64,000 bases of DNA from Deltaproteobacteria bacterium (GTDB taxonomy: Bacteria > Bdellovibrionota > Bdellovibrionia > Bdellovibrionales > JAMPXM01): NCBI GenBank assembly GCA_017302795.1, contig JAFLCB010000010.1:34065-98064 (forward strand). Reading direction: 5' to 3'. The translations under genes were made by a program, and so were the position numbers. Under the pieces are notes generated by a model. That model had not been told where the DNA came from, did no database searches, and saw only the letters and a list, made by a program, of their open reading frames with translations. Below are positions 447 to 60,338 of the stretch, one piece after another (within the stretch, counting starts at the first letter, position 1; each line of letters begins with the position of its first letter).

Positions 447-699
447 AGTCTTTTCCTGGCTTAAATTTAGGCACCTTGGCGGCCGGAATCACAAGTTTGG
501 TTCCAGTTTTTGGGTTTCTTCCTGTACGAGACCTTCGCGAGGTCATGGAGAACGTCCCGAAGCCAACAAGTTTGACCTCGTCGCCCTTTGCCACAGTCTT
601 TGAAATGATCTCAAGAGCGGCATCAATCACGCCCTCCGACTGAACCTTCGTAAGCTTTGTTTTCGTTGCAACTTTTTCGATGAGCTCAGCTTTGTTCAC
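427..699 (-). CDS. hup: HU/IHF-family nucleoid-associated DNA-binding protein
   Basis: 90 aa. MNKAELIEKVA...GFGTFS...RTGRNPKTG...VPKFKPGK is the canonical HU pattern, including the beta-arm RNPxTG. Confidence 0.92.
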   Translation of the reverse strand: MNKAELIEKVATKTKLTKVQSEGVIDAALEIISKTVAKGDEVKLVGFGTFSMTSRRSRTGRNPKTGTKLVIPAAKVPKFKPGKDFKELLK

Positions 700-783
700 T
701 TACGGGCCCCCCTCGCAAGAACTGAAGCGCTGTATTTAGGTTCGGTCTGGTTTATCGTCAAGGCTTCTGATATTTTATCAAGT

Positions 784-2550
784 ATGCTGCGACAGCTTCG
801 ACAACAAACCGCCGAATTTTTAACTAACGAGTTGCGAAATCTCTTGCCGACCGAATTTTCGGGAGAAATTTCGCAATCTAAACTTGAGCTTGTTTTGGAA
901 CAGCCAAAAAGTCTCGATCACGGGCATTTGGCTTTTCCAGTTTTTCCTCTAGCTAAAATTATGCGCCAACCACCTCCGGCGATTGCGGCTAAAATTGCAA
1001 TGCATCTGCAAGAAGTGATCGCAAAAGGTGCAAACGCGCAATCGAGTTCACTTGGTCTCGAGCGCGTGCTGCCTGCTGGTGGATATGTCAATTTGACGTT
1101 TCGAAATGATTTGTTTCAGGCTCGTTTATTTAAATCCATCCTCGAGGATGGCGAAAAATTGGGCTACGCAAGCACGGGGAAGGGTAAGCGAATTGTTATC
1201 GATTATTCATCTCCTAACGTTGCGAAACCGATGCACGTCGGCACCCTTCGAGCGACCGTCATCGGACAAGCCATTCGCAACATCGCTGAAACTCAAGGCT
1301 ACGAAGTTATCGGATTAAATCACCTTGGCGACTGGGGTGTTCAGTTTGGAAAATTGGCGTGGGCCTACCGCAAGTGGGGCCATGAGTATGACTTTAAGGG
1401 AGCTCCATTCCAAAGTCTGTTTGATCTTTATGTGCGCTTTCACGACGAAGCGACAAAGGATCCAGCATTGGATGCGGAAGGTTCGCTGGTCTTTAAGCGG
1501 CTCGAGCAGGGCGATAAAGAGATTGAAAAAATTTGGAAAATGTTTGTCGATATCACTTTAGTGGAAGACCAAAAGCTTTGGGATCTACTCGGTGTGAAGC
1601 ACGATTTGGTTCGCGGGGAATCTTTCTACAACGATCGATTGAAATCAGTTGAAGACCTGCTTGAAAAAAAGGGGCTTTTGACTGCTAGCGAAGGTGCGAT
1701 GGTTGTTCACCTCGGCGATGAAATGCCGCCGTGTTTGATTCGAAAAAGTGACGGTGCATCCCTTTACGCAACTCGTGATTTGGCGTCGGCGATTTACCGT
1801 AAGAACGAATTGAAAGCAGACCTTTGTCTTTATGTCGTCGGGGTCGATCAGACTCTCCACTTTAAGCAAGTCTTCAAAGTGTTGGAGATGTCGGGCTTTG
1901 ATTGGGCCAGGGAATGTCATCATATTAGTTTTGGACTTTATCGTTTCAAAGATGGCGTTAAGATGTCGACACGAAAAGGAAATGTCATTTTTCTGGAAGA
2001 TATTTTAAAGCAGGCGATCGAAAGAACGGCGGAAGTGATCGCGACCAAAAATCCTGGATTAAGCAGCGAAGAGCGCGCCAAGATCGCGCAGGACGTCGGT
2101 GTCGGCGCTGTGATATTTGGTGATTTGGTTTTTGATAGAGTTAAGAACGTTGAGTTTGATTGGGATCGAATTTTGAGTTTCGAAGGCGATAGCGGTCCCT
2201 ATGTTCAATACATGCATGTCCGTTGTCAGAGCCTTTTGCGCAAGTTCGGGAGGGTCCCTAACTTAAGTCAGGTTTCTCCGTTGATTGAAAAAGATGAACG
2301 TGAGCTTGTGCGTCTATTGATGTCCTACGACGAAACATTGGAAGCTTCGTTTCGCGGATTTAAACCAAACATTTTGGCTCAATATCTGCTTGAGGTCTGC
2401 GGTGTATTCTCGCGGTTCTACCATAATAATCGAATCCTCGGTGAAGCGAGAGACCTCGAGGAATCCCGTATGGCCTTGGTGGCGGCAACTCAAGCAGTGC
2501 TAAAGCAGGGGCTAAATAAGCTTTCGATTCAAGCGCCCGACTATATGTAG
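784..2550 (+). CDS. argS: arginine--tRNA ligase
   Basis: 588 aa. Class I synthetase segments SSPNVAKPMHVGTLR, HLGDWG and MSTRKG, plus a C-terminal anticodon-binding region ending in M, typical of ArgRS. Confidence 0.95.
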   Translation: MLRQLRQQTAEFLTNELRNLLPTEFSGEISQSKLELVLEQPKSLDHGHLAFPVFPLAKIMRQPPPAIAAKIAMHLQEVIAKGANAQSSSLGLERVLPAGGYVNLTFRNDLFQARLFKSILEDGEKLGYASTGKGKRIVIDYSSPNVAKPMHVGTLRATVIGQAIRNIAETQGYEVIGLNHLGDWGVQFGKLAWAYRKWGHEYDFKGAPFQSLFDLYVRFHDEATKDPALDAEGSLVFKRLEQGDKEIEKIWKMFVDITLVEDQKLWDLLGVKHDLVRGESFYNDRLKSVEDLLEKKGLLTASEGAMVVHLGDEMPPCLIRKSDGASLYATRDLASAIYRKNELKADLCLYVVGVDQTLHFKQVFKVLEMSGFDWARECHHISFGLYRFKDGVKMSTRKGNVIFLEDILKQAIERTAEVIATKNPGLSSEERAKIAQDVGVGAVIFGDLVFDRVKNVEFDWDRILSFEGDSGPYVQYMHVRCQSLLRKFGRVPNLSQVSPLIEKDERELVRLLMSYDETLEASFRGFKPNILAQYLLEVCGVFSRFYHNNRILGEARDLEESRMALVAATQAVLKQGLNKLSIQAPDYM

Positions 2551-2648
2551 CCATTGGTCGAGGTGCGGCTGGCAGAAAGCACATCTCATTTTGAGGCGTG
2601 CTTAGCCAGCTCAATTTTGCCGTCCAAATTGCCGATAAAGGCAATGGA

Positions 2649-3341
2649 ATGAAGCGTCTTTCACCAGCACTTTTTTCGTCGGTTATTTTGCTGATCTGCC
2701 TTGGGCTTATCGGTTTGCGTGCGGCTGTTTCGAAAGACGATACAGAAGCGCAAGCGCTGAGATCTCGACTGGCAATGGCAGAGAAAGAAACAGCTGAAGC
2801 TAGATTTCGCGAGCGCTTAGCGCTGGAAGAAAATCGAGAAACTCGCGAAGTCGTCGCTAAGCAACTTCCCGGAGTTTTAAAGGGCGTCCCATCGGACTCG
2901 CGATCTTATCAAATACGAACTGTTGCGAGCGTTATCAATTCGACCTCTAAACATTTGAAAATTGAACGTGCATCAAGCCTTCTTGAGCGAGCGAAAGAAG
3001 AATTTCGACTTCGCAATTACGAGGAATCAAACTTACGTTTGGAAGCGCTTTTAAATTCTTATCCGGACTCCTTGCACGGCCCAGAAGCACGATTTCTTTT
3101 GGTGGAAGGCTACTTTCAGTCGAAAGACTTCGAGGCGTGCATTGAAATTGTTGAGCAAATGATTCGCCTCTATCCAGAGAGCGAGCTTACTGGTTTTGCG
3201 CTTCTGCGCTTGGGTAAGATCTACGAGGGAAGAGATCGAATTGAAGACGCTGCCGAAATTTATCGGTCAGTGGTCTTTAACTTTACTCAAGCAGAACTCA
3301 AGCGGCAGGCTGAAGTTTCACTTAAGGCAGTCGAGCTATGA
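2649..3341 (+). CDS. membrane-anchored TPR protein with CpoB/YbgF-like C-terminal domain
   Basis: ATG at 2649 (MKRLSPALF...) followed by a hydrophobic anchor and a coiled segment. The C-terminal TPR-like part (NYEESNLRLEALLNSYPDS...YFQSKDFEACIEIVEQMIRLYPESE) resembles YbgF. The listed ORF starts earlier, at 2598. Confidence 0.6.
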   Translation: MKRLSPALFSSVILLICLGLIGLRAAVSKDDTEAQALRSRLAMAEKETAEARFRERLALEENRETREVVAKQLPGVLKGVPSDSRSYQIRTVASVINSTSKHLKIERASSLLERAKEEFRLRNYEESNLRLEALLNSYPDSLHGPEARFLLVEGYFQSKDFEACIEIVEQMIRLYPESELTGFALLRLGKIYEGRDRIEDAAEIYRSVVFNFTQAELKRQAEVSLKAVEL

Positions 3342-4165
3342 CGCGGACGCCTTTCCAGAAATTGATTTTCCTGTTTGGTTTTTTTTTAGGATTCACCATA
3401 GAAGTCCAAGTGGAGGCCGCAGAACGAGTTCAGCTTCGGCCGATTGAAGTAGTAGCCGAACGTTTAATCAAGACATCCTCTGCAGTTCTTGAAGAACCAG
3501 CAAAATGCTTGGATCAAGAAGCTAGTGTTTGTGCAATTCGTGTCGGACACAGTCGAAAATTAACCATCGGACAAACGGGAAGTCGCGAACTAGTTTTTGG
3601 CGATGGCGCCATCGCCATTAGGCTAGCGCCAGATCGCTTTCGATTGATTGAAGGGTTCGTCCGCGTTCGTGGAGAAGGTCTGACGACCGTCGAGATCACT
3701 TCGCGCACGTCGATCACCGTTTCTGGCGAAGCATTTGTCGAAAGATTTGGGGATTCCGTCACGGTGACGAACACAGGTGCAAGAAGAGTCGTTTTGAAAA
3801 CCGTCGGAGAAGAGGGCGGGCTAATCGCATCTGGTCTAGAGATTTACTTTGATCGCCCAGATGTTCGTACAGGAGAAATCGAGTCCGGGGCCCCCTTACC
3901 ACTTGATCTAGAACGGCAGGTGGTCCGAGAGGCGAAACTACACGATGGATCAAAAGAGTCGTTCCAAGCCCGCGTCGGAATTCTTCTAGCGCTAAGAAAA
4001 CAAGCGGCATTTAAAGCTGCAGAAATTCACGAAGAAATCGTCAATAGAAAACTTGCTTCTATCGAATCGGCTAGGCAGGAGCGCATTCGAAATGCGCAAA
4101 TTCAGGAAGCTCGCGATCGTGAACTTCGTGCGATGTTTCGCCGAAAAGTTTTAAACGTCGAGTAA
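3338..4165 (+). CDS. secreted protein with FecR-like beta-sandwich segment and basic coiled C-terminus
   Basis: ATGA overlap with the upstream gene and an N-terminal signal/anchor. The central segment (LVFGDGAIAIRLAPDRFRLIEGFVRVRGEG...ITVSGEAFVERFGDSVTVTNTGARRVVL) follows the FecR-domain pattern. The domain call is weak. Confidence 0.55.
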   Translation: MTRTPFQKLIFLFGFFLGFTIEVQVEAAERVQLRPIEVVAERLIKTSSAVLEEPAKCLDQEASVCAIRVGHSRKLTIGQTGSRELVFGDGAIAIRLAPDRFRLIEGFVRVRGEGLTTVEITSRTSITVSGEAFVERFGDSVTVTNTGARRVVLKTVGEEGGLIASGLEIYFDRPDVRTGEIESGAPLPLDLERQVVREAKLHDGSKESFQARVGILLALRKQAAFKAAEIHEEIVNRKLASIESARQERIRNAQIQEARDRELRAMFRRKVLNVE

Positions 4166-4285
4166 TTCCTCCTCGACCTAGGTCGAAAGACGAAATCATA
4201 ATATGGCAAGTCATCTACCTATCCCATTAAGTTTGCTATCCTGAAGAAGTGATTTTCAGTGTCGTATTCTCATGGAGGAGAAGAC

Positions 4286-5953
4286 ATGTCTTCAGTTGGA
4301 TCCGCTGACAAGCGTTCGCAGCAGGATGAAGCACTTCGTCGCGCTCGCGAAACCTATCAAGATAAAGAAGTTGATCAAGCAAAGAAGCACTCTCAAGACT
4401 TAAAACGTCTTACAGAGGTTCACCAATCTGAACTTCGGGAAATGGAAGAAGCGCACACGCGGCAAATGGAGGACTTGAAAGTTCGTACCCGCGAAGCAAT
4501 CTCCGCCAGAGATATGCGCTATCAAAAAGAAATTGAAGACCTCCGGTCTATGCATCAGAACCAGGCCCGAAGATCAGCCCAAGAGGCCGACATAAAGCAA
4601 AAGCAGACGCAAGAGTTCATGAAAGGTCAGCTGCAAACCACCGTAGCTATTAAAGATCGGCAATCTGAGGAGCAAAAAGCTCAGTACGAAGCTCAACTTG
4701 GGGATAAGACAAAGCGCTTCACGGAAGGTTTAGACGAAAATCGTCAGATGGCCAAAAAGTCCATCGATTCTGAAAAGCAAAAGCTGGCCGAGTCTCATAA
4801 AAGAGAAGTCGATGCCATCGTTCAAGACCGAAACCGACAAATCGATCAAAGTCAGCGCTCGTTCCATTCTTTGAGAAAAACGAAAGAACAGCAGATTAAG
4901 AACTTGGAAGAAGCCTCTCGCCAGAATCAAGACCGACTTTCCCAAGCTCATATGTTGACACTGCGCGAGCAGGCGGCAGATCACGATAGTGGCTTGACCC
5001 GCGCTCGGGCCGGTCTATCAGAGGGCCTGCAGCAAAATAGAACCCGCTATGAAAAAGCGCTGGAAGAAAATGTCGATCGTTCCTCGATGAATTCGGAAGC
5101 GTTTAAAAGTTCAATTCAAGACAGGATTGATAACCGAATCAATGTTCGGGAAGCGGAAAATAGAACGCTGAAAAACGATCTCAACCGGCAAAAAGCTGAC
5201 CTTCTAAATCAAAAAAATCGGGAAGTGGCCAATGTACGGTCGGCCATGGGCGAAAATGTCGATCAGCTTGAAAAAGCTCGCGTTGCGACTGTTGAAGCTT
5301 CGAACACGCGAAATGCTAAAGTCATTAAAAATGTGGTCGAAGAAAAAGATCAGCACCTGATGAAAACTAATCGCCTTTTCCAAGACAAAATAATGGTCGA
5401 GAAGTCCAAAGCTGACGAACATCTTGGAAACACCAAACTTGGTTATGAGCGCGAACTGGCGATGAAGGATTTGCAAGCAAATACCCGAGAAGAAAGAATC
5501 AAAGGGATTAACCAGAGAGAAGAAGAATACTTAAAAACTTTTTATAGCGAATCCCTCAATGCAAATCGAGACAATTTCGAGACGTCCCTAATGGAAATTC
5601 GGGATAAAAACAAGCGCGATCAGGACTTAATTTTTCAAAATTTTTCTAAGCAATCCACAGAACGCGAAGTCAAATTTCAGGCAAAGCTAACCGAACTGAA
5701 CGACCGCCACCAAGAGCAGTTGCAAAAGATTAAAGCTGAGCAAGCCAATGTGATGAAAAGCCAGGTGAATATTTCGGCTAAAGAAAAGAAAGTGATTGTC
5801 GAGCAAAAGAACGTCGAAATGCAGCGCCAAGCGGCCCAATTTGAAAATCGTATTGCAAAATTAGAAGAGACGCATCGCCGCGAAGTAGAGTCTCTTAATC
5901 GACGTCACGAGGAATCTCTTGTAAGTATGACCCGAGCAAAACCTAAGGCTTAA
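4286..5953 (+). CDS. long coiled-coil protein (K/E/Q/R-rich), possible filament-forming or structural protein
   Basis: The ORF 4259..5953 starts at GTG. GGAGGAG lies 5 nt before the ATG at 4286, which favours that start. About 555 aa of almost uninterrupted charged heptad-like sequence, with no enzymatic motif. Confidence 0.7.
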   Translation: MSSVGSADKRSQQDEALRRARETYQDKEVDQAKKHSQDLKRLTEVHQSELREMEEAHTRQMEDLKVRTREAISARDMRYQKEIEDLRSMHQNQARRSAQEADIKQKQTQEFMKGQLQTTVAIKDRQSEEQKAQYEAQLGDKTKRFTEGLDENRQMAKKSIDSEKQKLAESHKREVDAIVQDRNRQIDQSQRSFHSLRKTKEQQIKNLEEASRQNQDRLSQAHMLTLREQAADHDSGLTRARAGLSEGLQQNRTRYEKALEENVDRSSMNSEAFKSSIQDRIDNRINVREAENRTLKNDLNRQKADLLNQKNREVANVRSAMGENVDQLEKARVATVEASNTRNAKVIKNVVEEKDQHLMKTNRLFQDKIMVEKSKADEHLGNTKLGYERELAMKDLQANTREERIKGINQREEEYLKTFYSESLNANRDNFETSLMEIRDKNKRDQDLIFQNFSKQSTEREVKFQAKLTELNDRHQEQLQKIKAEQANVMKSQVNISAKEKKVIVEQKNVEMQRQAAQFENRIAKLEETHRREVESLNRRHEESLVSMTRAKPKA

Positions 5954-5966
5954 GGGGTACCGAGAG

Positions 5967-7442
5967 ATGTTAGCAGACCGAAGGACTAAAATTGTCGCGA
6001 CTATTGGGCCGGCAGTTCGTGGAAAAGAAAACTTACGAAAAGCGATTGCTTCCGGAATGAATGTTGCGCGCCTCAACTTCTCCCACGGAAATCATGCCGA
6101 CCACTTGCAGGTTATTCAAGACCTTAGGGCGCTTTCAGAGGAAATGCGGGCGCCGCTGACCGTTCTTCAGGATCTACAGGGTCCTAAGATTCGAGTTGGA
6201 CGATTTGAAAATGGTGCCATTGAGATCGAAGAAGGCGAACAGGTCGTCATCACCGTTCGGGATGTGCTAGGAAAAAAAGGCCTGATTCCATCGGATTTCA
6301 AGGCTCTTCCGCAAAGCTGTCAGCCAGGCGGACGGATCATGTTAGATGACGGTCTGCTAGAGTTAAAGATAGATAAAGTCACGACAGACGAAGTTCATTG
6401 CACAGTTATCTACGGCGGCGTTTTGAAGGATCGCAAAGGTATGAACGTACCAGGCGGAGAGCTGTCGGTGGATTGTCTGACGCCAAAAGACATGGCCGAT
6501 CTTGAGTTTGGCCTCAAGCATGACGTGGATTACATCGCATTGAGTTTTGTTAGGCACGGAGATGATATCCGGAAATTGCGCGAACTGATACAGGCCAAGG
6601 GGTCGACTGCTAGAATCGTTGCGAAGATTGAGATGCTTGAGGCGATCGACAACCTCGAAGAAATCGTTCGACTGTCGGATGGCGTGATGGTTGCCCGTGG
6701 GGATCTTGCCGTTGAAATAGGCCAAACTCGACTGCCGCAGATTCAAAAGCAGATCGTGAAACTTTGCAATTCTATTGGCCGTCCCGTTATCACTGCTACC
6801 CAAATGTTGGACTCGATGACCGAGAATCCGAGGCCAACCCGCGCCGAAATCACTGATGTTGCGAATGCGGTTTTGGACGGATCCGATGCGCTGATGCTGT
6901 CGGCTGAATCAGCAAGCGGGAAATTTCCGTTTCGCTGCATTCAGACAATGCACGACATCATTCTCGAGGTTGAACGCAACGGCGACTATTTCTACGATAT
7001 GCGGATGGATGAGCAGTTCTCCTCCGTGGCTGATGGAATAGGTGCAGCAAGCGCGCTGACGGCATTAAAGTTAAACGCCACGGCGATTGTTTGCCTAACG
7101 ACTTCAGGAAAAACGGCCACGATTATTTCAGGCTATCGACCCAAAGCTCGCATCATCGCAGTGACCCATATTTTGCCAACGTTGAATAGAATCGAGCTTG
7201 TATGGGGGATACAAACTTTGAAAATTGACCCCTACAAGTCCTCTGAAGAAGCCATGCAACAGATTGAAAAAATGCTGCTCGAATATGGACTGGTAAAACC
7301 GGGCGATAAAGTCATTCTGACTTTAGGAGTGCCGGTACTCGAACGGGGCACAACAAACGCGCTTCGCGTTTATACGATTGAACGTGAAGACTTTCATCGT
7401 CTTCCTGAGGCGGAGCTACCGACTCGATGTAGGACAATTTAA
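5967..7442 (+). CDS. pyk: pyruvate kinase
   Basis: 491 aa. TKIVATIGPA, MNVARLNFSHG, MVARGDLAVEIG and the C-terminal allosteric domain. Confidence 0.95.
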   Translation: MLADRRTKIVATIGPAVRGKENLRKAIASGMNVARLNFSHGNHADHLQVIQDLRALSEEMRAPLTVLQDLQGPKIRVGRFENGAIEIEEGEQVVITVRDVLGKKGLIPSDFKALPQSCQPGGRIMLDDGLLELKIDKVTTDEVHCTVIYGGVLKDRKGMNVPGGELSVDCLTPKDMADLEFGLKHDVDYIALSFVRHGDDIRKLRELIQAKGSTARIVAKIEMLEAIDNLEEIVRLSDGVMVARGDLAVEIGQTRLPQIQKQIVKLCNSIGRPVITATQMLDSMTENPRPTRAEITDVANAVLDGSDALMLSAESASGKFPFRCIQTMHDIILEVERNGDYFYDMRMDEQFSSVADGIGAASALTALKLNATAIVCLTTSGKTATIISGYRPKARIIAVTHILPTLNRIELVWGIQTLKIDPYKSSEEAMQQIEKMLLEYGLVKPGDKVILTLGVPVLERGTTNALRVYTIEREDFHRLPEAELPTRCRTI

Positions 7443-8425
7443 GTCCGCGTGATCTTTCTGCAAGCGTGGATCAGTTCCCAGTAGGGAAACTGTGTTTCAA
7501 GATCGGCGAGATTGAACGACATCGCGAGCGCGCCGTCGAGGGAGAACTTTTCGCCGACAAGCTTCTTTTCTCCTAGGGAATTGACATCGTCGACGTTGAA
7601 CAGCGAACCAAGATCTCGCATCGAATCATTCTGCATTTGGGTGAGATTGAGTTTTATCTCGCCTTTTTCGTTGGCTTTTCCTTTGCGACCGTAAAACAAA
7701 AGTGCCTTCACGGTTTTCATTTCTTTTTCTTCAATCGAAGTGCGTTTGTCTTCACTCTTGAATAAAAAGTCATTGTAGAAGTCGACAAAACGAACGAGGA
7801 AGTCGGGATTAAAGACGGTGATTCGCTGTTTGCCTTCGCCAAGATCCTCGATTTTTAGATGGCCAAGACCCTGCAGTACTTCCATGAGGGTCTGCATCTT
7901 ATTTGTAGGCTGCTGGAAAATTTGAATTGTGTATTTCCTGAGGGTTCCTGGAGGCACGAGGGTCGCGCCATCAGGTGACTTCTCGCCGTAGATTTTTGCC
8001 ACTGTCGCGAGGATTGCACAAAGGCGTGTTACTGTGTGTGGTGGAAAAACAGCATTCGACTCTTCATCTGACTTTTCGAGTGATTTGATTTTTTGATTGG
8101 CATTACGCAAATGGTTATTAACAGTTCGCATGATCGCTTTCGACCATTCTGGAAAAGTCTTGAACTGCGCATTCAAAGCTTTGAAGGGGAGTTCAATCAC
8201 CGCGGTGTCAGCCAATGCCCGCGCAGACGCAGATCTCGGCTTCTGGTCAAAAAACGCCATTTCGCCAAGCATATCGCCCGGACCCAGTTCGGCGAGTGTG
8301 ATTTCGGAATTTCCTTTTGATTTTAGAATTCCAAGTTTTCCGGACTTGATCACATACATTGCTAGCGAAGGATCGCCTTCGCGAAACAGATACTCGCCTT
8401 TTTTAACAATTCGCGGGTCACCCAA
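7439..8425 (-). CDS. cyclic-nucleotide-binding (Crp/Fnr-like) protein with extended C-terminal domain
   Basis: N-terminal cNMP-binding signature YLFREGDPS...GPGDMLGEMAFF...RSASARA. A possible winged-helix segment (NKMQTLMEVLQGLGHLKIE) is followed by about 130 extra residues. Confidence 0.8.
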   Translation of the reverse strand: MGDPRIVKKGEYLFREGDPSLAMYVIKSGKLGILKSKGNSEITLAELGPGDMLGEMAFFDQKPRSASARALADTAVIELPFKALNAQFKTFPEWSKAIMRTVNNHLRNANQKIKSLEKSDEESNAVFPPHTVTRLCAILATVAKIYGEKSPDGATLVPPGTLRKYTIQIFQQPTNKMQTLMEVLQGLGHLKIEDLGEGKQRITVFNPDFLVRFVDFYNDFLFKSEDKRTSIEEKEMKTVKALLFYGRKGKANEKGEIKLNLTQMQNDSMRDLGSLFNVDDVNSLGEKKLVGEKFSLDGALAMSFNLADLETQFPYWELIHACRKITRT

Positions 8426-8511
8426 AGCGTCTGGCTCCTAGTTTCCCTATGATAGCAGCGAGAACTTCTAAAATGGCAGCAGCGAGAAGCTAATGTGAGA
8501 CATAGATAGAC

Positions 8512-9687
8512 CTAAGGCTTGAATTCCAGATCGGCGCGCATCAGACGGCCAGAATCAGTTCCAAAGTAAATTTCGCCGCTCGGTGTTTCACCGACGGATC
8601 TGATTCGCTCTCCCAGATTATCAAACACGCGGGTTTCCGTAGCAGCCGAATAGTTGGAGGGCTCTTTTTTCAATGAAACGATATTTAAATGCTGAAGCAC
8701 CAACGCGCCAATTAGGAGATGGTCTTTCAGTTTTGGATATTTCTTGCCAGAGTAAAAGTGCAGCGAACTAGGAGCGATAGATGGAACATAATACTTCACA
8801 GGATCCTGAATCCCGTCTTTAACAGGCTTGCTACTGATCGACGGACCCCAGTATTCGCGACCATAAGAAACTAGCGGCCAACCATAGTTGAGTGTCGGTT
8901 TCACATGATTGATCTCATCGCCGCCCCGTGGTCCGTGTTCGACGACAAACAGATCACTAGTGGACGGATGGATTGCTATGCCTTGCGGATTGCGGTGGCC
9001 AAAACTGTGAATCTCAATCAAAGCGCCGGGAATCACTGGAGCACCGTTAAAGGGAGTGCCATCCAGTTTTAAGCGGAGTACCTTTCCCCAGTGTTGTTTT
9101 AGGTCTTGAGCGCGCTCGCGTTCGTTTCTCTCGCCGAGGGAAAGGTAGAGTGAACTGTCTTTGTCGATTTTGTCGATTTTGTCGATAGCAATCCGCGAAC
9201 CAAAATGTTGACCCGAATCGACAGCCGGCTGAGCTTCAAATATCCGCTTTAGATTTTCTAGTCGGCCTGTGCTTGAGTTTCCTACCCATTCACCTCGGAA
9301 TAAGCCGGTTGTCTGTCCCTCGTCTCGTTCAGCTTCGGTGCCTTTTTCAGGTCGTACAGAAGCCGTCAAATAGATCCAGGTCTTCGAATTCGCTCGGTGA
9401 ATTCTAAGATCCAACAATCCGCCTTGGCCCAAGGCGATCACTGGTGGCGCGCCAGGGATCTGTCTTATTGCTTTAGTCTTTAGGTTGAGGTGATGAATTT
9501 CACCCGACCTCAAAGTCAAAAGGGCGTGATCCTCATCGAGAAAGTCAAAACCCCAGATGACGTCCTTGAATTTTGAAACCTCAACAGCCTTGGCGTCGAT
9601 TTTCCCTGGGTCGGCGAGTGCAGAAAATGGTTTTGAAAACAAAACTAGAACGAAGGAAACAACAACGAGGCGAGTGATCGCTTTCAT
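8512..9687 (-). CDS. PQQ-dependent (soluble) sugar dehydrogenase, YliI/sorbosone dehydrogenase family
   Basis: Signal peptide. HFGSRIA, FGHRNPQGIA, EHGPRGGDEIN and NYGWP beta-propeller motifs. Confidence 0.8.
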   Translation of the reverse strand: MKAITRLVVVSFVLVLFSKPFSALADPGKIDAKAVEVSKFKDVIWGFDFLDEDHALLTLRSGEIHHLNLKTKAIRQIPGAPPVIALGQGGLLDLRIHRANSKTWIYLTASVRPEKGTEAERDEGQTTGLFRGEWVGNSSTGRLENLKRIFEAQPAVDSGQHFGSRIAIDKIDKIDKDSSLYLSLGERNERERAQDLKQHWGKVLRLKLDGTPFNGAPVIPGALIEIHSFGHRNPQGIAIHPSTSDLFVVEHGPRGGDEINHVKPTLNYGWPLVSYGREYWGPSISSKPVKDGIQDPVKYYVPSIAPSSLHFYSGKKYPKLKDHLLIGALVLQHLNIVSLKKEPSNYSAATETRVFDNLGERIRSVGETPSGEIYFGTDSGRLMRADLEFKP

Positions 9688-9689
9688 GC

Positions 9690-10349
9690 CTAAACCTGCA
9701 TCGGTTTTGCGTCGGCTGCGACTTCAACCGGCGCACCTGTAGCTTTGATGATCGCTTCTGGAGTCAGATCTGGAGCCCATTCAATCAGGCGAAAACCTCG
9801 GCCTTTTATGACATCCAATACACCAAAGTCAGAAACAATACGGTCAATGCAGTTTTGTCCGGTCAATGGAAGAGTGCATTTTTTTAGAATTTTATGCGAG
9901 CCATCTTTCGCGACATGTTCCATCGCCACAATAACTCTTCTCGCACCGGCAACCAAATCCATGGCGCCGCCCATTCCTTTGACCATCTTTCCTGGAATCA
10001 TCCAGTTGGCAATTGATCCATCTTGGTCCACTTGCATAGCGCCGAGAACCGTTAGATCAATGTGGCCACCGCGAATCATTGCAAAACTATCCGCACTTGA
10101 AAAGAAAGAGGCGCCTTTGACCGCAGTGACGGTTTGCTTACCGGCGTTGATCAGGTCGGCGTCGACCTCCGTTTCAAGTGGAAACTGGCCCATGCCAAGA
10201 AGTCCATTTTCACTTTGCAGCATGACATTCATGGACTCGGGAATAAAATTAGCGACCAAAGTTGGAATTCCAATTCCAAGGTTCACACAAAATCCCGATT
10301 GAACTTCTTTTGAAATACGCTTCGCGATTTGATCTCGTGAAAGTGGCAT
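9690..10349 (-). CDS. scoB: 3-oxoacid CoA-transferase subunit B
   Basis: 219 aa. LQSENGLLGMG contains the catalytic-Glu SENG motif. Adjacent to subunit A and a thiolase. Confidence 0.9.
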   Translation of the reverse strand: MPLSRDQIAKRISKEVQSGFCVNLGIGIPTLVANFIPESMNVMLQSENGLLGMGQFPLETEVDADLINAGKQTVTAVKGASFFSSADSFAMIRGGHIDLTVLGAMQVDQDGSIANWMIPGKMVKGMGGAMDLVAGARRVIVAMEHVAKDGSHKILKKCTLPLTGQNCIDRIVSDFGVLDVIKGRGFRLIEWAPDLTPEAIIKATGAPVEVAADAKPMQV

Positions 10350-29114: not shown

Positions 29115-29190
29115 GGTCGCTTGGCGCAGTTGGTAGCGCGTTTCCTTGACATGGAAGAGGTCGCAGGTTCGAGTCCTGCAGCGACCACCA
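29115..29190 (+). tRNA. tRNA-Val (anticodon GAC), CCA encoded
   Basis: Manual cloverleaf fold. Acceptor GGTCGCT pairs with AGCGACC; D stem GCGC/GCGC; anticodon stem TTTCC/GGAAG with loop TTGACAT; T arm GCAGG-TTCGAGT-CCTGC; ends in ACCA. Confidence 0.9.
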
Positions 29191-29680: not shown

Positions 29681-30682
29681 TTAGACTTCGCTTTTTTTAG
29701 GATGGCTTCCGTAATAGAAGATCGTGCCCTTTTAGAAACTTGGCTTTAGGGCGCTCATTTTTACTACTGAACTTTGAGGATCTTGTTGGATGAAAGGTTC
29801 TGTCGAGGTTTTTGGAGACATCACGAAGCCTCTCGATGAAAAATGGTCGGCCGATGAGTAGGGTGCTACTCGACACGCACTCTTGGATTTGGCCCATGAA
29901 TGGCGAAAGTAGACAAGGCTGTCAGCAAAGTTGATCCACATACAGGGGCGCTGATCCGAGAAGTTGCCATCTCTAGCGCGGTCGATAAATCTTCGGTCGA
30001 ACTTAGCGTTACATATGATGCCAGATGCTTCGTGTCGGGTTTGTTCAAAACGGTCCGCCCCGGCCACTACAATGAAGTCTGCAATTTAAAAGCTCATTCC
30101 ACTGCAAGATTTTAGAATTCAGTTTTCGGCTTTCCAGCCTTCCTGCCTCCAGATTCGCGCAACCGTAGAACGATGTCAGAAAAACTTAAAACAAAGATGT
30201 CGGGCGGTATCGCAGATCACATGCCACATCGGAAATAGTGGTTACTGCCTGTGGCCCTGAGAAAAGCCACTGCTTTACAGAGCGCGGCTTCAACCCCAAA
30301 GCTCTGCCAATATGGGGTCGAGCTTTTCGTTTCCGGCGCCGGAAATGATCGCAATGGCTTACGTCGTACGCGCGACAGGCGAACGCAGGGCCTAAAATCC
30401 GCTCGATATTTTAACTCATGATTCGCTTTGGCAAATTGAAAATTCGATTGACGACGGTGCTCGACCAAAACGAACGGTGTCGTTTCTTCCGCCGACATGG
30501 CGACTCTTGTGGACTTTGTCGAAGCTATAGAACAGCGGGATGCACGCTTCAACGTTCGATGATCGCGATCGCGGCGGCTTCGACTTGCGCCTCATAGTGA
30601 GCATTTTGGTGCGAAAAAATTCGATCTAAAACCAGTGGTAAAGATTCTTGGTGAACCAAGCACTTTCGGAGAAGGGAAAACC

Positions 30683-31660
30683 ATGCAAGACCTCAAATCG
30701 CGACCGGATCAAAATATCCTTTCTGAACTTCGCCTGGCGATTCAGGAAGAACGAAAGATCACGCTTCAGATTCTTCAACTCATCAACGAAGCGCACACTC
30801 GACGCTTGTACGCTAGCGCTGGTTACTCGACTCCATTTGAATGGCTAACCAAAGAGTTTGGCTATTCGGCGGCAGCCGCGATGCGCCGACTTGATTCTGC
30901 TCGCGCACTTCGCGAAGTTCCATCGATCGAAAACAAAATTGAAACGGGCGAAGTGAATTTAACGAATATAGCAAAAGTTCAAAGCGTGATTCGTTCTGAA
31001 GAAAAAAGAACCGGCCAACGAATGGATGTAACAGACAAAGAAAAAGCGTTTGAAATGATTGAAAACAAGTCTTCGCGTGAAACCGAGGACTTACTGGCTC
31101 ACGCCTTTCCCAAGGCCGCACTAAAAAAGTCCGAATCGATTCGCACCATCAACGAAACCGAAGTTCGAGTACAGGTGACTTTGACCAAGCTGCAACTAGC
31201 TGCACTTGAACGCGTTCGCGAAGTCGCATCACACTCGAACTTAGGCAGCTCACTTTCTGAAATAATCGACATGCTTGCAAACACGTATCTAGAAAAGAAC
31301 GATCCACTTCGGCGCGAAGTAAAACCGAGGAAACCTTCAGTCGATCACATTGACAAAACCCCAATCACTCCGGCGCCGGAAGCTGCGGCACAAATGGACT
31401 TTCGCCAGCGAAAGCCAATCGCGCCAGCTCTCCGAAACGCCGTAGTCCGGCAGGCCGAAGCTAGATGCCAGTTTGTCGACCCAAGAAAGGGTCACAGATG
31501 CGAAAGCCGAAGTTTGCTTCAGATCGATCACATCGTTCCCGTTTCGCTCGGCGGAACGAACGATTCACGCAATCTTCGAGTTCTTTGTCGAACGCATAAC
31601 TTGGCAGCCGCCGAAGACATCTTAGGAAAAGCAAAGATGCAGCCCTTTCGCCGGGTGTAG
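30683..31660 (+). CDS. HNH endonuclease with DUF222-like N-terminal domain
   Basis: GGAGAAGGGA lies before the ATG at 30683. The C-terminal HNH motif is CQFVDPRKGHRCESRSLLQIDHIVPVSLGGTNDSRNLRVLCRTHN. The N-terminal helical region (YASAGYSTPFEWLTKEFGYSAAAAMRRLDSARAL) resembles DUF222. Confidence 0.85.
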   Translation: MQDLKSRPDQNILSELRLAIQEERKITLQILQLINEAHTRRLYASAGYSTPFEWLTKEFGYSAAAAMRRLDSARALREVPSIENKIETGEVNLTNIAKVQSVIRSEEKRTGQRMDVTDKEKAFEMIENKSSRETEDLLAHAFPKAALKKSESIRTINETEVRVQVTLTKLQLAALERVREVASHSNLGSSLSEIIDMLANTYLEKNDPLRREVKPRKPSVDHIDKTPITPAPEAAAQMDFRQRKPIAPALRNAVVRQAEARCQFVDPRKGHRCESRSLLQIDHIVPVSLGGTNDSRNLRVLCRTHNLAAAEDILGKAKMQPFRRV

Positions 31661-56186: not shown

Positions 56187-56282
56187 CATCGCTCCGTGGC
56201 GATGTGGATGATCAGTCATCGCTCCGTGGCGATGTGGATGATCAGTCATCGCTCCGTGGCGATGTGGATGATCAGTCATCGC
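56187..56282. repeat. perfect 30-bp tandem repeat, 3.2 copies
   Basis: CATCGCTCCGTGGCGATGTGGATGATCAGT occurs at 56187-56216, 56217-56246 and 56247-56276, with CATCGC again at 56277-56282. Each unit contains the inverted repeat CATCGC/GCGATG. Confidence 0.98.
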
Positions 56283-56311
56283 CAAACATTACGACACGCA
56301 GTCGACGCAGA

Positions 56312-56344
56312 AAAACCTCCCGGCTAATCTAGCGAGGAGGTTTT
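56312..56344 (-). terminator. rho-independent terminator downstream of rpmF
   Basis: AAAACCTCC pairs with GGAGGTTTT around a 14-nt loop. On the minus strand the stem is followed by TTTTTC. Confidence 0.75.
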
Positions 56345-57360: not shown

Positions 57361-58317
57361 TTATTTTATCGCGCGAATCTGATTGGCCACTAATCCAGTG
57401 GCTGCTTTGTTTCCTGACCAAGCTCCATAGCTAGCAACAGTCACCAGCGCCGAAACACTGAGGTTTTGTTTTTTTGCGGTCGCAAAATGAGCGGATTTTT
57501 CAGCCCACTTGTATCCGTTTGCAATCGGGGAGCGAAGCTTCAAAGCGAAAAGCGAATCTCTAAGAGCTAAACCTTGAAGCGACTCAAGAGTGTCTAGTTG
57601 CGCTTGAAATGCTGCTTTCGACTGCGGCGGAAATCCCGACGGAAAAAAGCCCGTTCCTTCTTGGCGATTCAAGGCCTCGTTGAGCCATACATCTGCCGTT
57701 TTACCCAACCCCGGATTAACTAGCAACTGGCCAATCCAATAGGCCGCAGCCGCGGCCTGCACTCGCTGGTGGGTGACCCACGATTTCATTTCTTCGCCGT
57801 TCCATCGACGCTCTCCGAGGAGGGACCGCGAACTTCGGAGGGACGCTTCGAGGCGGGGACTGAGGCGAGCGAGGCGGGCGGCCCGGTCTTCAAATTTTGC
57901 ACTTCTCAACATCAAAACTGAACGAGCGTAAAGCCCAAGAAAATGGGAAATTTCGACTGTTTTTGAATCTCCGAAAGAACCATCATCGCCCATTCTTGCG
58001 AACGCCCATTCGAAGGCCATAATTCCGCGATCGATGATGAAACCATTTCCCAGCGCGACTCCTGCTCGGATCCAGTTCCATCCTTCAAGCTGGTGACTGA
58101 CTAAGACGCGATCTGGAAATCGCCGATTCAAACCGAGCGCGCCGTCGCCAGCAGGGCGCGCCAATGGATTGATTTTTTTTGCGATCTGCTGCAGCTGAAC
58201 GTTGGCTCGCCAAAGCTTGATTTCATCTGTTTTCAAGCTCGCGGCCATGGAATCGTCGGGAGCTGAAGCGCAATTGAATGCAAAAACTAAAATCAAACAT
58301 CCGACCAGAGATTTCAT
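57361..58317 (-). CDS. hypothetical lipoprotein or secreted helical protein
   Basis: 318 aa. N-terminus LILVFAFNCAS (lipobox-like). ATGA overlap with the upstream recombinase gene. No family recognised. Confidence 0.6.
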   Translation of the reverse strand: MKSLVGCLILVFAFNCASAPDDSMAASLKTDEIKLWRANVQLQQIAKKINPLARPAGDGALGLNRRFPDRVLVSHQLEGWNWIRAGVALGNGFIIDRGIMAFEWAFARMGDDGSFGDSKTVEISHFLGLYARSVLMLRSAKFEDRAARLARLSPRLEASLRSSRSLLGERRWNGEEMKSWVTHQRVQAAAAAYWIGQLLVNPGLGKTADVWLNEALNRQEGTGFFPSGFPPQSKAAFQAQLDTLESLQGLALRDSLFALKLRSPIANGYKWAEKSAHFATAKKQNLSVSALVTVASYGAWSGNKAATGLVANQIRAIK

Positions 58318-58856
58318 AGAATCAACTTTCGTAGTTCTTGCTGCGAATAAACATAGTCGGCATAAATCATCGTATTTGTGATGTTGCGATGTCCGAGCGC
58401 GACCTGCACTAAGCGAAGATCTTTGGTCTTACGGTACAATCGAATAGCGAAAGTGTGGCGAAGTGCGTGAAACTTCTTTCCCGTTGGTCGGTACCAAACC
58501 CAAACTTGGCGAAGGCGATGATACCCAATCGGAAATAAATCTCCAGATGCCCCGGATACATGTCGATCCGAATACTCTCTTAGTCTTTCGAAAAGCCATG
58601 GAGCCAACGGGAGTTCTCGATCATTGGAACCTTTTATTCCGCGAATGAAAAGTGTTTTGTCGTAGGGATTTATATCCACTTTTCTTAAACCCAAGAGCTC
58701 GGTCGCGCGCGCACCAGTTTTTAACGCCAACCAAATCAATAAGACGTCGCGACTTTCCTCAGCAGGCCCTCTGCCCAGTAGAGCTTCGAGGCGCTCTACT
58801 TCGGGATCCAGAAGGTATTTGTTCTTATTTAGAGCATATCGTGTCGACGTTGCCAT
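58314..58856 (-). CDS. small tyrosine recombinase, catalytic domain only (FimB/FimE-like size)
   Basis: 180 aa. TGARATELLGL (Arg I), HALRHTFA (H-x-x-R) and LGHRNITNTMIYADY (His/Tyr nucleophile). No N-terminal core-binding domain. Confidence 0.8.
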   Translation of the reverse strand: MATSTRYALNKNKYLLDPEVERLEALLGRGPAEESRDVLLIWLALKTGARATELLGLRKVDINPYDKTLFIRGIKGSNDRELPLAPWLFERLREYSDRHVSGASGDLFPIGYHRLRQVWVWYRPTGKKFHALRHTFAIRLYRKTKDLRLVQVALGHRNITNTMIYADYVYSQQELRKLIL

Positions 58857-59414
58857 TGCTCATCATCATGAAAACCACGCGTCGCATTGGTCAACGCGTT
58901 TAATGGAATGGATGACATCGGTCGAATGATTGTTAGGGATGTTGAAAGCCCATTAAATTGCCGGTATCGCGATCGTGAACCAAGACAGCGAAAATCGTGT
59001 CCGAAGGGTTTAAAGCCCGCCAGCGCAGTGGATAGGAACTTGTTCGGTTCCGACCAACATTCACTCAACGCATGTGCTGTTCGTGTCCTGCGGCTAGATC
59101 GCTGTGGTGGAAATGAGTGGCTACGGTGAAATCGATAAATATATCCAACTCCGAGCCAGTCACTGCTCCTTGCGTTCGTTGGCAATTTATCGACGATAAG
59201 CCGGGAGCCGCAGTGTAGCCTCCAAGTCAGTGGCCGCCGAAAGAGGCAAACCACCCGAAGCATTTTGGCCGTTGCTCAATGATAGGCTTGGATCCCCGCC
59301 TGATGGACAGTTTTCGAAAGAAGGGGACCATGAGACACCCCCCAAAGTCCGAAAGCGTGGCAGAACGGCATTTTACGTCGATTTAAGAATAGTAAGTAAT
59401 TATAAATACTTAAT

Positions 59415-59442
59415 AGTCACACTTATAACTATAAGTGTGACT
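59415..59442. repeat. 28-bp palindrome with recombinase-core-site or operator architecture
   Basis: AGTCACACTTA-TAACTA-TAAGTGTGACT reads as 11-bp perfect inverted arms around 6 bp, or 13-bp arms around AC. It sits in an AT-rich patch between the recombinase and HTH genes. Confidence 0.9.
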
Positions 59443-59615
59443 TTGAAACATATGGCAGTCGACATTCGGACAAAACCGAATGGAAACGTGAAAAAAGCTT
59501 GAGATTTCATGGATCTAGACTTGCCAAATCTAACCGAGGCTGATTCGATGTTGTGAAACGCATCGGTTTAAGTTGTGATTTAGATTGTTTCTGATGTGTT
59601 TCACAAGGGGTCCAG

Positions 59616-60272
59616 ATGGATTTGCGAACTGAAGTTTCACCAGATACACACCCAGAAGCGCCAGCAGAAGTACCATTCGATGTGCCATTGGCAGAGGGGG
59701 CCTCATCACCACCTGGCTTCCAGCGAGCCAGATCGAGCCTTCGCCAGCGATATGAAGCAGAGGCTAGGGTCATCGAAAAACGATTGGGCGGCTTGGAATC
59801 CGTTCGGGAATCACTCGGTTTAAGCCAAAGGAAGATGGCGCAACTGCTTTTAGTTGATCCTTCGGCATGGACCAGATGGACAAGCGGGGATACAGCTCCG
59901 CCTCATGTTTGGCGTTCCCTCGCTTGGTACTTAGCACTTCAAGATAAATATCCAGCTTTGGACGCAGCATTTTGGCTTCAAGGCGTTGCACGAGCGGCGG
60001 ATGGTGATCGAATTTCTCAAAACGCAGACGAAATTCGGGCTGGGCGACTTCAAACGCGCAGTCTTGAACTCAAAGTCCAGGAACTGATGAACGAACTCGA
60101 AAGCCTGAAAGCTCGCTCAAAGGACTCAACCGCAGGACCATCGGGCGAACTCGATGAAACACAGCAAAAGGAACGACGCGCTCAGGTAGAAACTCGGGCG
60201 CTAGCCAACTTTTTTCTTGCTGTCACATTCGCGGCGCTCGGCTATGTGATCGCGGTCTATTTGGCGAAGTGA
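59616..60272 (+). CDS. tail-anchored XRE/MqsA-like helix-turn-helix protein
   Basis: 218 aa. HTH segment LGLSQRKMAQLLLVDPSAWTRWTSGDTAPPHVWRSLAWYLAL, a coiled-coil (LELKVQELMNELESLKA) and a C-terminal TM helix (FFLAVTFAALGYVIAVYLAK). Confidence 0.65.
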   Translation: MDLRTEVSPDTHPEAPAEVPFDVPLAEGASSPPGFQRARSSLRQRYEAEARVIEKRLGGLESVRESLGLSQRKMAQLLLVDPSAWTRWTSGDTAPPHVWRSLAWYLALQDKYPALDAAFWLQGVARAADGDRISQNADEIRAGRLQTRSLELKVQELMNELESLKARSKDSTAGPSGELDETQQKERRAQVETRALANFFLAVTFAALGYVIAVYLAK

Positions 60273-60324
60273 CCGGCCTCCTGCGCAGACGAGCCAGTGT
60301 CACTTTCTGGGACGTTCCAGATTG

Positions 60325-60338
60325 CGAATTGCAATTCG
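60325..60338. promoter_or_regulatory. perfect 14-bp palindrome upstream of the large lipoprotein gene (candidate operator)
   Basis: CGAATTGCAATTCG lies about 120 nt upstream of the ATG at 60460. Confidence 0.35.

Follow-up and report, generated by a model that had tools for sequence, protein, structure and literature searches.

A conserved palindrome beside the gene of a minimal tyrosine recombinase in Bdellovibrionota is probably a recombination site used as attB by phage-derived elements

The 64-kb stretch of DNA analysed here, called the window in its entirety (Deltaproteobacteria bacterium, phylum Bdellovibrionota; GenBank assembly GCA_017302795.1, contig JAFLCB010000010.1), carries a 28-bp palindrome between a gene encoding a 180-amino acid (aa) tyrosine recombinase and a gene on the opposite strand encoding a helix-turn-helix (HTH) protein. 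An earlier examination of the letters of this DNA, referred to below as the sequence-only reading, had placed the palindrome AGTCACACTTATAACTATAAGTGTGACT at 59415-59442, exactly where it was found. The features needed for the argument are given here, and L numbers designate the loci that were compared.

59415-59442: palindrome AGTCACACTTATAACTATAAGTGTGACT, with 13-bp arms at 59415-59427 and 59430-59442 and an asymmetric centre, AC, at 59428-59429
59417-59440: 24-bp core TCACACTTATA-AC-TATAAGTGTGA, identical in 14 species genomes and in L002, L004, L005 and L018
59421-59436: invariant inner core ACTTATA-AC-TATAAGT, conserved in all arm classes
59426-59431: 6-bp centre TAACTA (TAGTTA on the recombinase-direction strand), a candidate overlap or crossover region with 11-bp arms on either side
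59404-59414: AT-rich conserved flank on the recombinase side, AAATACTTAAT, read ATTAAGTATTT towards the recombinase
58314-58856, minus strand: 180-aa tyrosine recombinase ("REC"), catalytic-domain-only and Xer-like; Pfam PF00589 (Phage_integrase), 9.8e-23, residues 19-167
58865-58894, minus strand: promoter-like site TTGACC-N18-CATGAT directly upstream of the recombinase gene, a consensus match only
59616-60272, plus strand: 218-aa XRE/MqsA-type HTH protein; Pfam HTH_31, 5.5e-6; NCBIfam MqsA-family HTH

Written out by its arms, the palindrome is AGTCACACTTATA-AC-TATAAGTGTGACT, or AGTCACACTTATA-GT-TATAAGTGTGACT on the strand that runs towards the recombinase gene. The term perfect, which had been applied to it, has to be given up for the centre: 26 of its 28 positions agree with the reverse complement and the asymmetry is confined to the central AC. 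The layout of 11-6-11 that had been proposed is a valid sub-reading, compatible with the crossover described below, but 13-2-13 is the natural description. A repeat finder returned perfect arms of 13 nt with 2 nt between them, which extend to 18 nt at 89%, and this is the longest perfect inverted repeat of the window. First-order Markov simulations of the window (n=100) never produced arms of 13 bp (0/100); the maximum was 12 bp, reached in 4/100. The AT-rich patch that had been noted around the palindrome was confirmed as a dip in GC content to 0.36-0.40 at 59300-59600, compared with about 0.50 nearby, and the distances that had been given to the two genes are correct: the recombinase start codon (58856) lies 559 nt away and the start of the HTH gene (59616) 174 nt away. 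The central 12 bases of the inner core, at 59423-59434, are TTATAACTATAA, searched for as TTATAGTTATAA on the recombinase-direction strand. Neither a second copy of the 13-mer arm nor another copy of the 12-bp inner core, allowing up to one mismatch, was found in the 64-kb window. The "related half-site" that had been pointed out at 60296-60306 does exist as a sequence, but it is a chance match: 11-mer matches with at most one mismatch have a simulated mean of 0.98 per window, three were observed outside the palindrome, and the half-site is absent from the equivalent position in the four orthologous loci.

The evidence that carries the interpretation of the palindrome comes from two closely related loci, L020 and L021. 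They encode an identical recombinase protein and their flanks are 97.6% and 99.4% identical, and L020 carries an extra 9.3 kb. The empty site and the two junctions read as follows.

Empty site, L021: ...GAC TCTCACTTATA GT TATAAATGAGA CTATTAAGT...
Left junction (attL), L020: host left arm, then GT, then the element right arm TATAAGTGTGA GTATTAAGTACTTGAAATT
Right junction (attR), L020: element ...TTTAACAGTA, then GT, then the host right arm TATAAGTGAGA CTATTAAGT

The attB, attL and attR sequences and the attP deduced from them are identical only across the 12-bp TAGTTATAAGTG, which includes TAGTTA, and the crossover of the L020 element lies within TAGTTATAAGTG. The suggestion made in the sequence-only reading, that the palindrome is a core-type site of a tyrosine recombinase, is thus supported by natural junctions that put the crossover inside the palindrome, in a segment containing its 6-bp centre. 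The cleavage points would exactly flank these six bases. Moreover, the conserved recombinase-side flank, ATTAAGTATTT, is the same flank that follows the right arm in the attP of the element, and the host flank and the element attP flank are likely to be homologous.

The L020 element occupies about 562-9920 of the locus (GCA_019637915.1, contig JAHBUV010000001.1), and all of its genes except the integrase gene are on one strand. They encode a terminase or packaging-ATPase fragment, a possible capsid protein of 374 aa, small membrane proteins, a lytic transglycosylase and an integrase. The presence of the terminase fragment, the lytic transglycosylase and the integrase indicates that the element is phage-derived, and possible identities for it are a small tailless phage and a satellite. 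The integrase of the element and the recombinase of the window share 47% identity over the entire length of the latter (E = 7e-48). The 63 residues called at the N-terminus of this integrase look non-coding and are followed by an internal Met, so that it is probably also a catalytic-domain-only protein. The first element gene next to attL does not encode an HTH protein, and a mirror-image module on the element, which had been considered, was rejected.

Further integration events were found in hosts with other arm classes, namely L038 and L069. L038 has an integrase-like gene next to the recombinase gene and a junction whose left side, GTTAAAGTATTACTTTAAGACTA, is nearly identical to the L020 element and is joined to a host right arm of another class, TATAAGTTATA. 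In L069, a paralogue with 47% identity is found about 1 kb away and the right half-site alone remains. L022 is possibly a further event. Catalytic-domain-only relatives of 175 aa are also encoded on viral contigs, at 48% and 39% identity. On one of these contigs, L106, 720 nt of non-coding DNA upstream of the recombinase gene include an exact inner core set in the same frame; the full palindrome had no exact match in the viral contigs, and the inner core was found in this one only. In the deposited phage genomes, no close relative of the recombinase was found, and all matches were below 35% identity. Two IMG/VR contigs, L102 (5570-6444) and L106 (5597-6363), have a small open reading frame (ORF) of 116 aa or 80 aa overlapping the start codon of the 175-aa recombinase gene. 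These small ORFs are candidates for separately encoded DNA-binding partners; the more specific idea of a core-binding domain split off in phages was dropped, as they have no Pfam match.

Taken together, the palindrome is probably the core-type recombination site of compact, catalytic-domain-only, Xer-like tyrosine recombinases and is used as attB by phage-derived elements. It has the inverted arms of a core-type site and a short asymmetric centre that gives it direction; strand exchange within the central region is seen for the element-borne paralogue at the L020/L021, L038 and L069 junctions; and a cognate recombinase with the full R-K-H-R-H/W-Y set is present. Under this interpretation, two recombinase protomers would occupy the inverted arms, recognising chiefly the invariant inner bases CTTATA and TATAAG, and would cleave on both sides of the AT-rich, slightly asymmetric centre TAGTTA, after which strand exchange would take place with a partner site that has the same centre. 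The resident recombinase itself presumably binds and cuts the site as well, given its paralogy to the element integrase, its adjacency to the palindrome, its intact active site and the similarity of the host flank to the element attP flank. More speculatively, the site could also regulate the HTH gene, or the HTH protein could be an accessory factor acting there; a regulatory role of this kind is probable, if speculative, because the site lies in a divergent control region at a fixed distance from the HTH gene.

The distribution of the site is narrow. An exact-pattern scan with the two centre bases left free, covering one genome for each of 185,579 species, found 14 loci, all in Bdellovibrionota and none in any other phylum; they fall in 14 assemblies with one site each, and since these assemblies are metagenome-assembled genomes, one site per assembly is an upper-bound observation. 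At every scan locus the site is found 150-250 nt upstream of an orthologue of the HTH gene, and the recombinase gene lies on the opposite side, 86 nt to 4.7 kb away. Across these loci the HTH protein falls to 35-45% identity and the surrounding intergenic DNA cannot be aligned, with the 24-bp core unchanged. The four orthologous loci L002, L004, L005 and L018, where the HTH proteins are 76-82% identical, likewise have an identical core at the same distance from the HTH start, and the DNA around it has diverged. The centre AC has a constant orientation (GT towards the recombinase) in 17 of 18 loci, the exception being L009 with CT, and the position just outside the core covaries symmetrically, as AG...CT or AC...GT. 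The palindrome is a real, non-random sequence feature. That it is instead a chance sequence, or a copy of a dispersed repeat of the repetitive extragenic palindromic (REP) or miniature inverted-repeat transposable element type, has nothing in its favour other than its small size and is a practically negligible explanation. Chance was ruled out by the simulations, by the single copy in the window and by the syntenic position in all loci examined. The dispersed REP-like repeat, which the sequence-only reading had named as the outcome that would overturn it, is contradicted by one site per assembly in 14 species and a syntenic context at every locus.

A second sample was drawn independently of the palindrome and consisted of 80 metagenomic loci chosen by recombinase homology alone, at identities of 55-79%. 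The inner core TTATAGTTATAA, with at most one mismatch, lies within 450 nt of the recombinase start in 45 of the 64 loci that have at least 350 nt of upstream sequence; the remaining 377 kb of the recombinase-selected loci contain three comparable palindromes. In most of the other loci the core lies at a greater distance (L023, L028) or in variant form (L030, L041, L051, L067 and L086, the last altered symmetrically to AAATA/TATTT), or an element (L038, L069) or kinase genes (L029) have been inserted. The consensus frame is acT-N5-TTATA-GT-TATAA-N5-Agt. Its inner core, its centre and its outer T/A are practically invariant, with an information content of 1.3-2.0 bits over 56 distinct sites. 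Of 43 recombinase-selected loci, 38 have a centre that reads GT in the direction of the recombinase and five have it flipped to AC (L048, L050, L060, L073 and L082). The arms of these five are still symmetric, and inversion of the whole palindrome would give such a result. In L040, L043, L049, L065, L072 and L091, differing left arms are combined with a similar, non-complementary recombinase-side arm, TATAT-TATTWA, which could be a replacement left by past recombination with elements or could reflect simple decay.

The N5 segments of the arms fall into complementary classes (CACAC/GTGTG, AAAGC/GCTTT, ACAGC/GCTGT, ATAAC/GTTAT, GTGAC/GTCAC and GTGAT/ATCAC). Watson-Crick symmetry at arm positions 2-5 was found in 48, 51, 51 and 40 of 57 distinct sites, compared with 20, 26, 23 and 27 expected if the arms varied independently, and each of these positions uses 2-4 pair types. 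The symmetry could result from a need for cruciform extrusion, from contacts that co-evolve with variable parts of the recombinase or from quasi-palindrome correction, a mutational process that can make arms symmetric. Such covariation, which in L086 extends to the inner core, is also what would be expected of a structural hairpin selected for pairing, either as an RNA stem-loop in one of the divergent leaders, with a role in processing, stability or termination, or as a DNA cruciform. The predicted single-strand hairpin has a free energy of -10.5 to -10.8 kcal/mol (z about -5), and an AT-rich centre favours cruciform extrusion. However, pairing alone would not demand the sequence conservation that is seen in the inner core, in the centre and in the outer ACT/AGT. 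Among the arm pairs that are not Watson-Crick, 14 are of the G.T type, 10 of the A.C type and 31 of the transversion type, with no wobble excess on either strand; the lack of a G.T excess favours duplex DNA over an RNA hairpin as the target of selection. The palindrome was not called by a terminator scan and has only TTT, without a T-run, after the stem. The intergenic region had no Rfam match at gathering or permissive thresholds (E <= 1), the only match of the window being a tRNA-Val at position 29 kb. In L020/L021 the recombinase start is about 60 nt from the site, which makes it unlikely that the site is inside the recombinase mRNA. A selected hairpin is therefore a very improbable account of the palindrome, and a site prone to form cruciforms would be compatible with a recombination site rather than an alternative to it.

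The recombinase beside the site is itself unusual in its size. Its catalytic set, R50, K75, H130, R133, H156 and Y165, is complete and is invariant in 23 diverse homologues, across which the C-terminal half of the protein is nearly unchanged. The best matches in the PDB are the C-terminal catalytic domains of XerA, XerD and XerH, and the best NCBIfam models are XerA, XerC, XerD and XerS, with scores that are all far under the full-length cut-offs. An AlphaFold model (pLDDT 84.9) gave XerH-difH and XerA as best Foldseek matches; the TM-score of about 0.7 on the query and about 0.4 on the target indicates that the model covers only the catalytic domains of XerH and XerA. No core-binding domain was found in the 180-aa protein, which aligns as a whole only to the C-terminal catalytic domains of XerA, XerD and XerH. 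By comparison, the current classification takes a core-binding and a catalytic domain as the minimum for every tyrosine recombinase (PMC8138268). A total of 1,354 homologues were found at E <= 0.001. The best 120 of these 1,354 are at least 65% identical and measure about 175-262 aa, mostly 176-190 aa with eight called longer, and consist of the catalytic domain only. Across loci the recombinase is conserved at 64-92% identity, above its neighbours (35-82% for the HTH protein). The promoter-like site directly upstream suggests that the recombinase gene may be expressed here independently of the palindrome; the block containing it is also found in L004 and L018. It is speculation that a sigma-70 promoter runs through the palindrome, where TATAGT would be a good -10 element towards the recombinase but no conserved -35 element is found.

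The relationship to Xer proteins raises the question of whether the palindrome is a dif-like site for chromosome-dimer resolution by the adjacent single Xer-like recombinase, perhaps with the HTH protein activating it at the septum. This fits with the one site per assembly in the 14 species, with the layout readable as 11-6-11, with the best relatives in sequence and structure being Xer proteins, including XerH bound to difH, and with the exploitation of the site by mobile elements, which exploit dif in the same way. The recombinase gene also adjoins its presumed site, as it does in XerS/difSL (PMC2731167). In addition, the window has its maximum of cumulative GC skew in a region of converging genes at about 37 kb, at a distance of 22 kb from the site, and no canonical dif was found in the 64 kb. 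At the site itself, however, the skew does not change and the genes diverge. The terminus call is weak, as the third-codon-position (GC3) skew has a clear positive sign at 1-21 kb only and becomes mixed past 37 kb. Searches of the whole window for the dif of E. coli and that of B. bacteriovorus, allowing up to 9 mismatches, and for the generic RATAA-N6-TTATS core gave no match. The recombinase lacks the core-binding domain found in all characterised Xer proteins, and B. bacteriovorus has canonical XerC/XerD and a dif at the skew terminus (PMC2731167, PMC11318664). The likeness to dif that had been pointed out is one of layout; membership is supported neither by the recombinase domains nor by the sequence, and a dif-like function is improbable. 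At the skew peak near 37 kb, plus-strand genes (to 35544) meet minus-strand genes (from 36316), which could mark a terminus or be an effect of gene orientation; the genes near the transition give no clue to a terminus. On the 3.26-Mb contig of GCA_019637915.1 the locus lies at 215-235 kb, and the position of the origin is needed to interpret this.

On the other side of the palindrome, the 218-aa HTH protein, which has 348 homologues, shows a coiled-coil stretch and a C-terminal hydrophobic tail in its sequence and appears to be anchored in the membrane by this tail. The palindrome could primarily be an operator for a dimer of this XRE/MqsA-type protein, regulating its own gene and perhaps the opposite operon, with the elements merely exploiting a conserved unique sequence. 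The spacing between the site and the HTH gene downstream of it stays at 150-250 nt in every case, including loci in which the recombinase gene is displaced by 0.6-4.7 kb, all non-mobile insertions are on the recombinase side and, in the clade of the window, the recombinase gene has its own promoter-like site far from the palindrome. The HTH and recombinase genes co-occur on many contigs, the two-fold symmetry suits a dimeric regulator and the site lies in the divergent control region of the HTH gene. By contrast, the recognition region of the HTH protein, LGLSQRKMxQLLLVDPSAWTRW, is nearly invariant over all arm classes, which comprise at least six forms of N5; the covarying N5 is therefore not read by the HTH protein, while the invariant positions could still be. 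A symmetric site of 28-30 bp with a conserved asymmetric centre exceeds the typical XRE operator. The protein is apparently tail-anchored in the membrane, and recombinase paralogues recombine in the site. If the leader is short, a distance of about 175 nt to the start codon would also be unusually great for autoregulation. The operator that the sequence-only reading had allowed as an alternative thus agrees with the fixed distance to the HTH gene and disagrees with a recognition region that does not track the arms; as the primary function of the palindrome it is possible, though not likely.

Several observations weigh against the palindrome as a recombination site of the resident and element-borne recombinases. 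All observed crossovers involve elements with their own recombinase paralogue, and a single site per genome offers the resident enzyme no obvious intramolecular reaction. This enzyme also lacks the core-binding domain that is treated as obligatory in the classification (PMC8138268), and the nearly invariant C-terminal half of the recombinase leaves the symmetric covariation of N5 unexplained. Where ordinary genes have been inserted, they separate the palindrome from the recombinase gene and in no case from the HTH gene, which indicates that the cis-linkage of the site is to the HTH gene. These insertions comprise the ~350-aa lipoprotein gene described below, Ser/Thr kinase genes (L012, L029) and other genes (L016, L028), and none of them is accompanied by a half-site scar. 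In L012 (2552-7013), two tandem Ser/Thr protein kinase genes (704 and 743 aa) separate the recombinase gene from the palindrome, which stays with the HTH gene; in L029, of which 4 kb is covered, the upstream sequence is as in L012, with the N-terminus of a kinase on the opposite strand.

Other arrangements of recombinase and site were considered and rejected. Cassette-style capture by the resident recombinase is contradicted by the lack of half-site scars beside its gene. An integron platform would have repeated palindromes downstream, of which there are none, and genes are inserted between recombinase and site without copies of the site. A Fim-type invertible switch lacks a credible second core in the flanks (~4 kb in most loci, 6-10 kb in some) as well as half-site scars; a second, weak core match with 6-8 of 14 pairs was seen in four loci. 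Literature searches found no description of the recombinase family or of the palindrome site. It is conceivable, if rather doubtful, that the palindrome, the resident recombinase and the membrane-anchored HTH protein together form an undescribed site-specific system of Bdellovibrionota. Such a system could provide a second site, independent of Xer, for the resolution of dimers or catenanes, suited to growth as filaments with several chromosomes; the HTH protein, tethered to the membrane, would then contribute the DNA-binding or activating function that the recombinase lacks. Alternatively, it could act as a landing pad, through which the host would govern the integration and excision of phages with paralogous recombinases.

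The remaining features of the locus are as follows.

57361-58317, minus strand: gene for a 318-aa secreted or lipoprotein-like protein; its start overlaps the recombinase stop by 4 bases and it is syntenic with the recombinase gene in relatives
58945-59318, minus strand: pseudogene of a ~350-aa Tat-signal lipoprotein gene (tblastn, 81% identity over 93 aa, and a frameshifted second piece)
59545-59606, plus strand: hairpin-forming blocks in the HTH leader, TTGTGAAAC...GTTTCACAA, found as an inverted repeat and a conserved alignment block

The locus belongs to the chromosome, has a conserved gene order and is not a mobile island. Several independent assemblies share the order fabG, fabD, fabH, rpmF, a ~160-aa gene, a ~320-aa gene, the 180-aa recombinase gene, the optional ~350-aa gene and the HTH gene, followed by a ~880-aa lipoprotein gene, gdh, a TPR gene and a PQQ gene; the named sources of the orthologous loci are Bdellovibrionota throughout. 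The 318-aa protein has no Pfam or NCBIfam family and the ~350-aa Tat-signal lipoprotein has no Pfam family. L004 and L018 carry an intact gene for the latter between recombinase and palindrome, and L002 and L005 lack it; the remnant at 58945-59318 is the decayed N-terminal part of this gene, and this decay accounts for the 759-bp "intergenic" gap next to the recombinase gene.

In the HTH leader, blocks at the same position in L002-L019 read CACAAC-N7-GTTGTG, GCATC-N-GATGC and similar, with changes that preserve pairing. They have no Rfam match, and they may represent a leader RNA structure or a second regulatory or binding site. A sigma-54 promoter was considered for the block ATCTAGACTTGCCAA in this leader and rejected, as the required GG is found in only some loci of the alignment. 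Another conserved motif, GAnACGTTTCAnnTTGCGA (60309-60327, plus strand), lies between the HTH gene and the ~880-aa lipoprotein gene and is also found just past the HTH stop in L002, L004, L005 and L018. It may serve an alternative sigma factor as a promoter or may be bound by a regulator; the sigma-54 spacing is not matched. Between fabH and rpmF (56196-56332, plus strand), two overlapping ORFs contain the peptide MAMWMISHRSV three times, which reflects a short tandem DNA repeat. Elsewhere in the window, a 341-aa protein with a C-terminal HNH endonuclease domain is encoded at 30635-31660 (plus strand), 1.4 kb from the tRNA-Val gene (29115-29190), the only tRNA gene of the window, and may represent a small mobile or defence-related insertion.

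The association described here defines a DNA target for a large uncharacterised family of minimal tyrosine recombinases, with more than 1,300 homologues at E <= 0.001. Members of this family are encoded by a core chromosomal gene in predatory Bdellovibrio-like bacteria and are carried by phages as well. If true, recombination of a 28-bp site without a core-binding domain would change the view of what the chemistry minimally requires, and such enzymes could yield very small recombinases with a simple target for genome engineering. In addition, a specific integration hotspot for phages and elements has been identified in bacteria for which few genetic tools exist. The questions raised are whether the resident enzyme is active on the site, whether the HTH protein is its DNA-binding partner and why the site is invariant while its outer arms covary.

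Among known systems, XerS/difSL of streptococci and lactococci and XerH/difH of Helicobacter and Campylobacter share with this locus a unique chromosomal site with inverted arms and an AT-rich centre, adjoining the gene of a single Xer-like recombinase, and XerH bound to difH is the closest structural match of the recombinase. A further trait in common is that related recombinases occur on mobile elements, as XerT reportedly does on TnPZ. XerS and XerH, however, measure about 350 aa and have a core-binding domain, in contrast to the 180 aa and the catalytic domain alone found here, and the palindrome has no sequence similarity to any dif. Unlike the hosts of single-recombinase Xer modules, the model species of the phylum already has XerCD/dif (PMC2731167). 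Integrative mobile elements exploiting Xer (IMEX), such as CTX-phi, and gokushovirus prophages target dif (PMC3091885, PMC7062461). The elements described here are like IMEX in that they target a unique and highly conserved chromosomal recombination site; they differ in that IMEX have no recombinase and borrow the host XerCD, whereas these elements encode their own paralogue of the resident enzyme.

In protein size, the nearest small precedent is provided by the FimB/FimE-type invertases, to which the recombinase is similar in being very small and reduced to the catalytic domain. These invertases are tyrosine recombinases of about 200 aa that consist essentially of the catalytic domain and act with accessory DNA-binding proteins on short inverted repeats near their own genes. 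The Fim models (NCBIfam PRK09870/PRK09871) match the recombinase weakly and in the C-terminal motif only (E = 7e-11 and 7e-9, far short of the cut-off), and Fim switches have two repeats flanking an invertible segment, unlike the one site found here with no second copy nearby.

Mycobacteriophage Brujita Int, an arm-less simple phage integrase, offers a parallel for the site: its att sites have a short core with two inverted arms around an overlap, and a central crossover leaves hybrid attL and attR sites. A simple integrase subgroup is also named in the classification (PMC8138268). Unlike what is found for simple phage integrases, the host here has a resident integrase paralogue beside attB throughout the clade, and the recombinases are without even a core-binding domain. 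The palindrome further differs from the usual attB in that it lies outside tRNA and protein genes and is dedicated, selectively maintained and equipped with covarying arms. Lastly, MpsA/MpsB of SGI1, a mobilisable island, comprise a full-length MpsA (nucleophile Y319) proposed to be a relaxase at a GC-rich oriT (PMC6414798). They resemble the present locus in pairing a recombinase-like catalytic protein with a separately encoded DNA-binding partner and an inverted-repeat site by the gene, although the partnership proposed here would operate without conjugation genes and at an AT-rich, chromosomal site. By analogy with these systems, the arrangement of gene and site resembles a single-recombinase Xer module, and the site itself would appear to work like the attB of an arm-less integrase.

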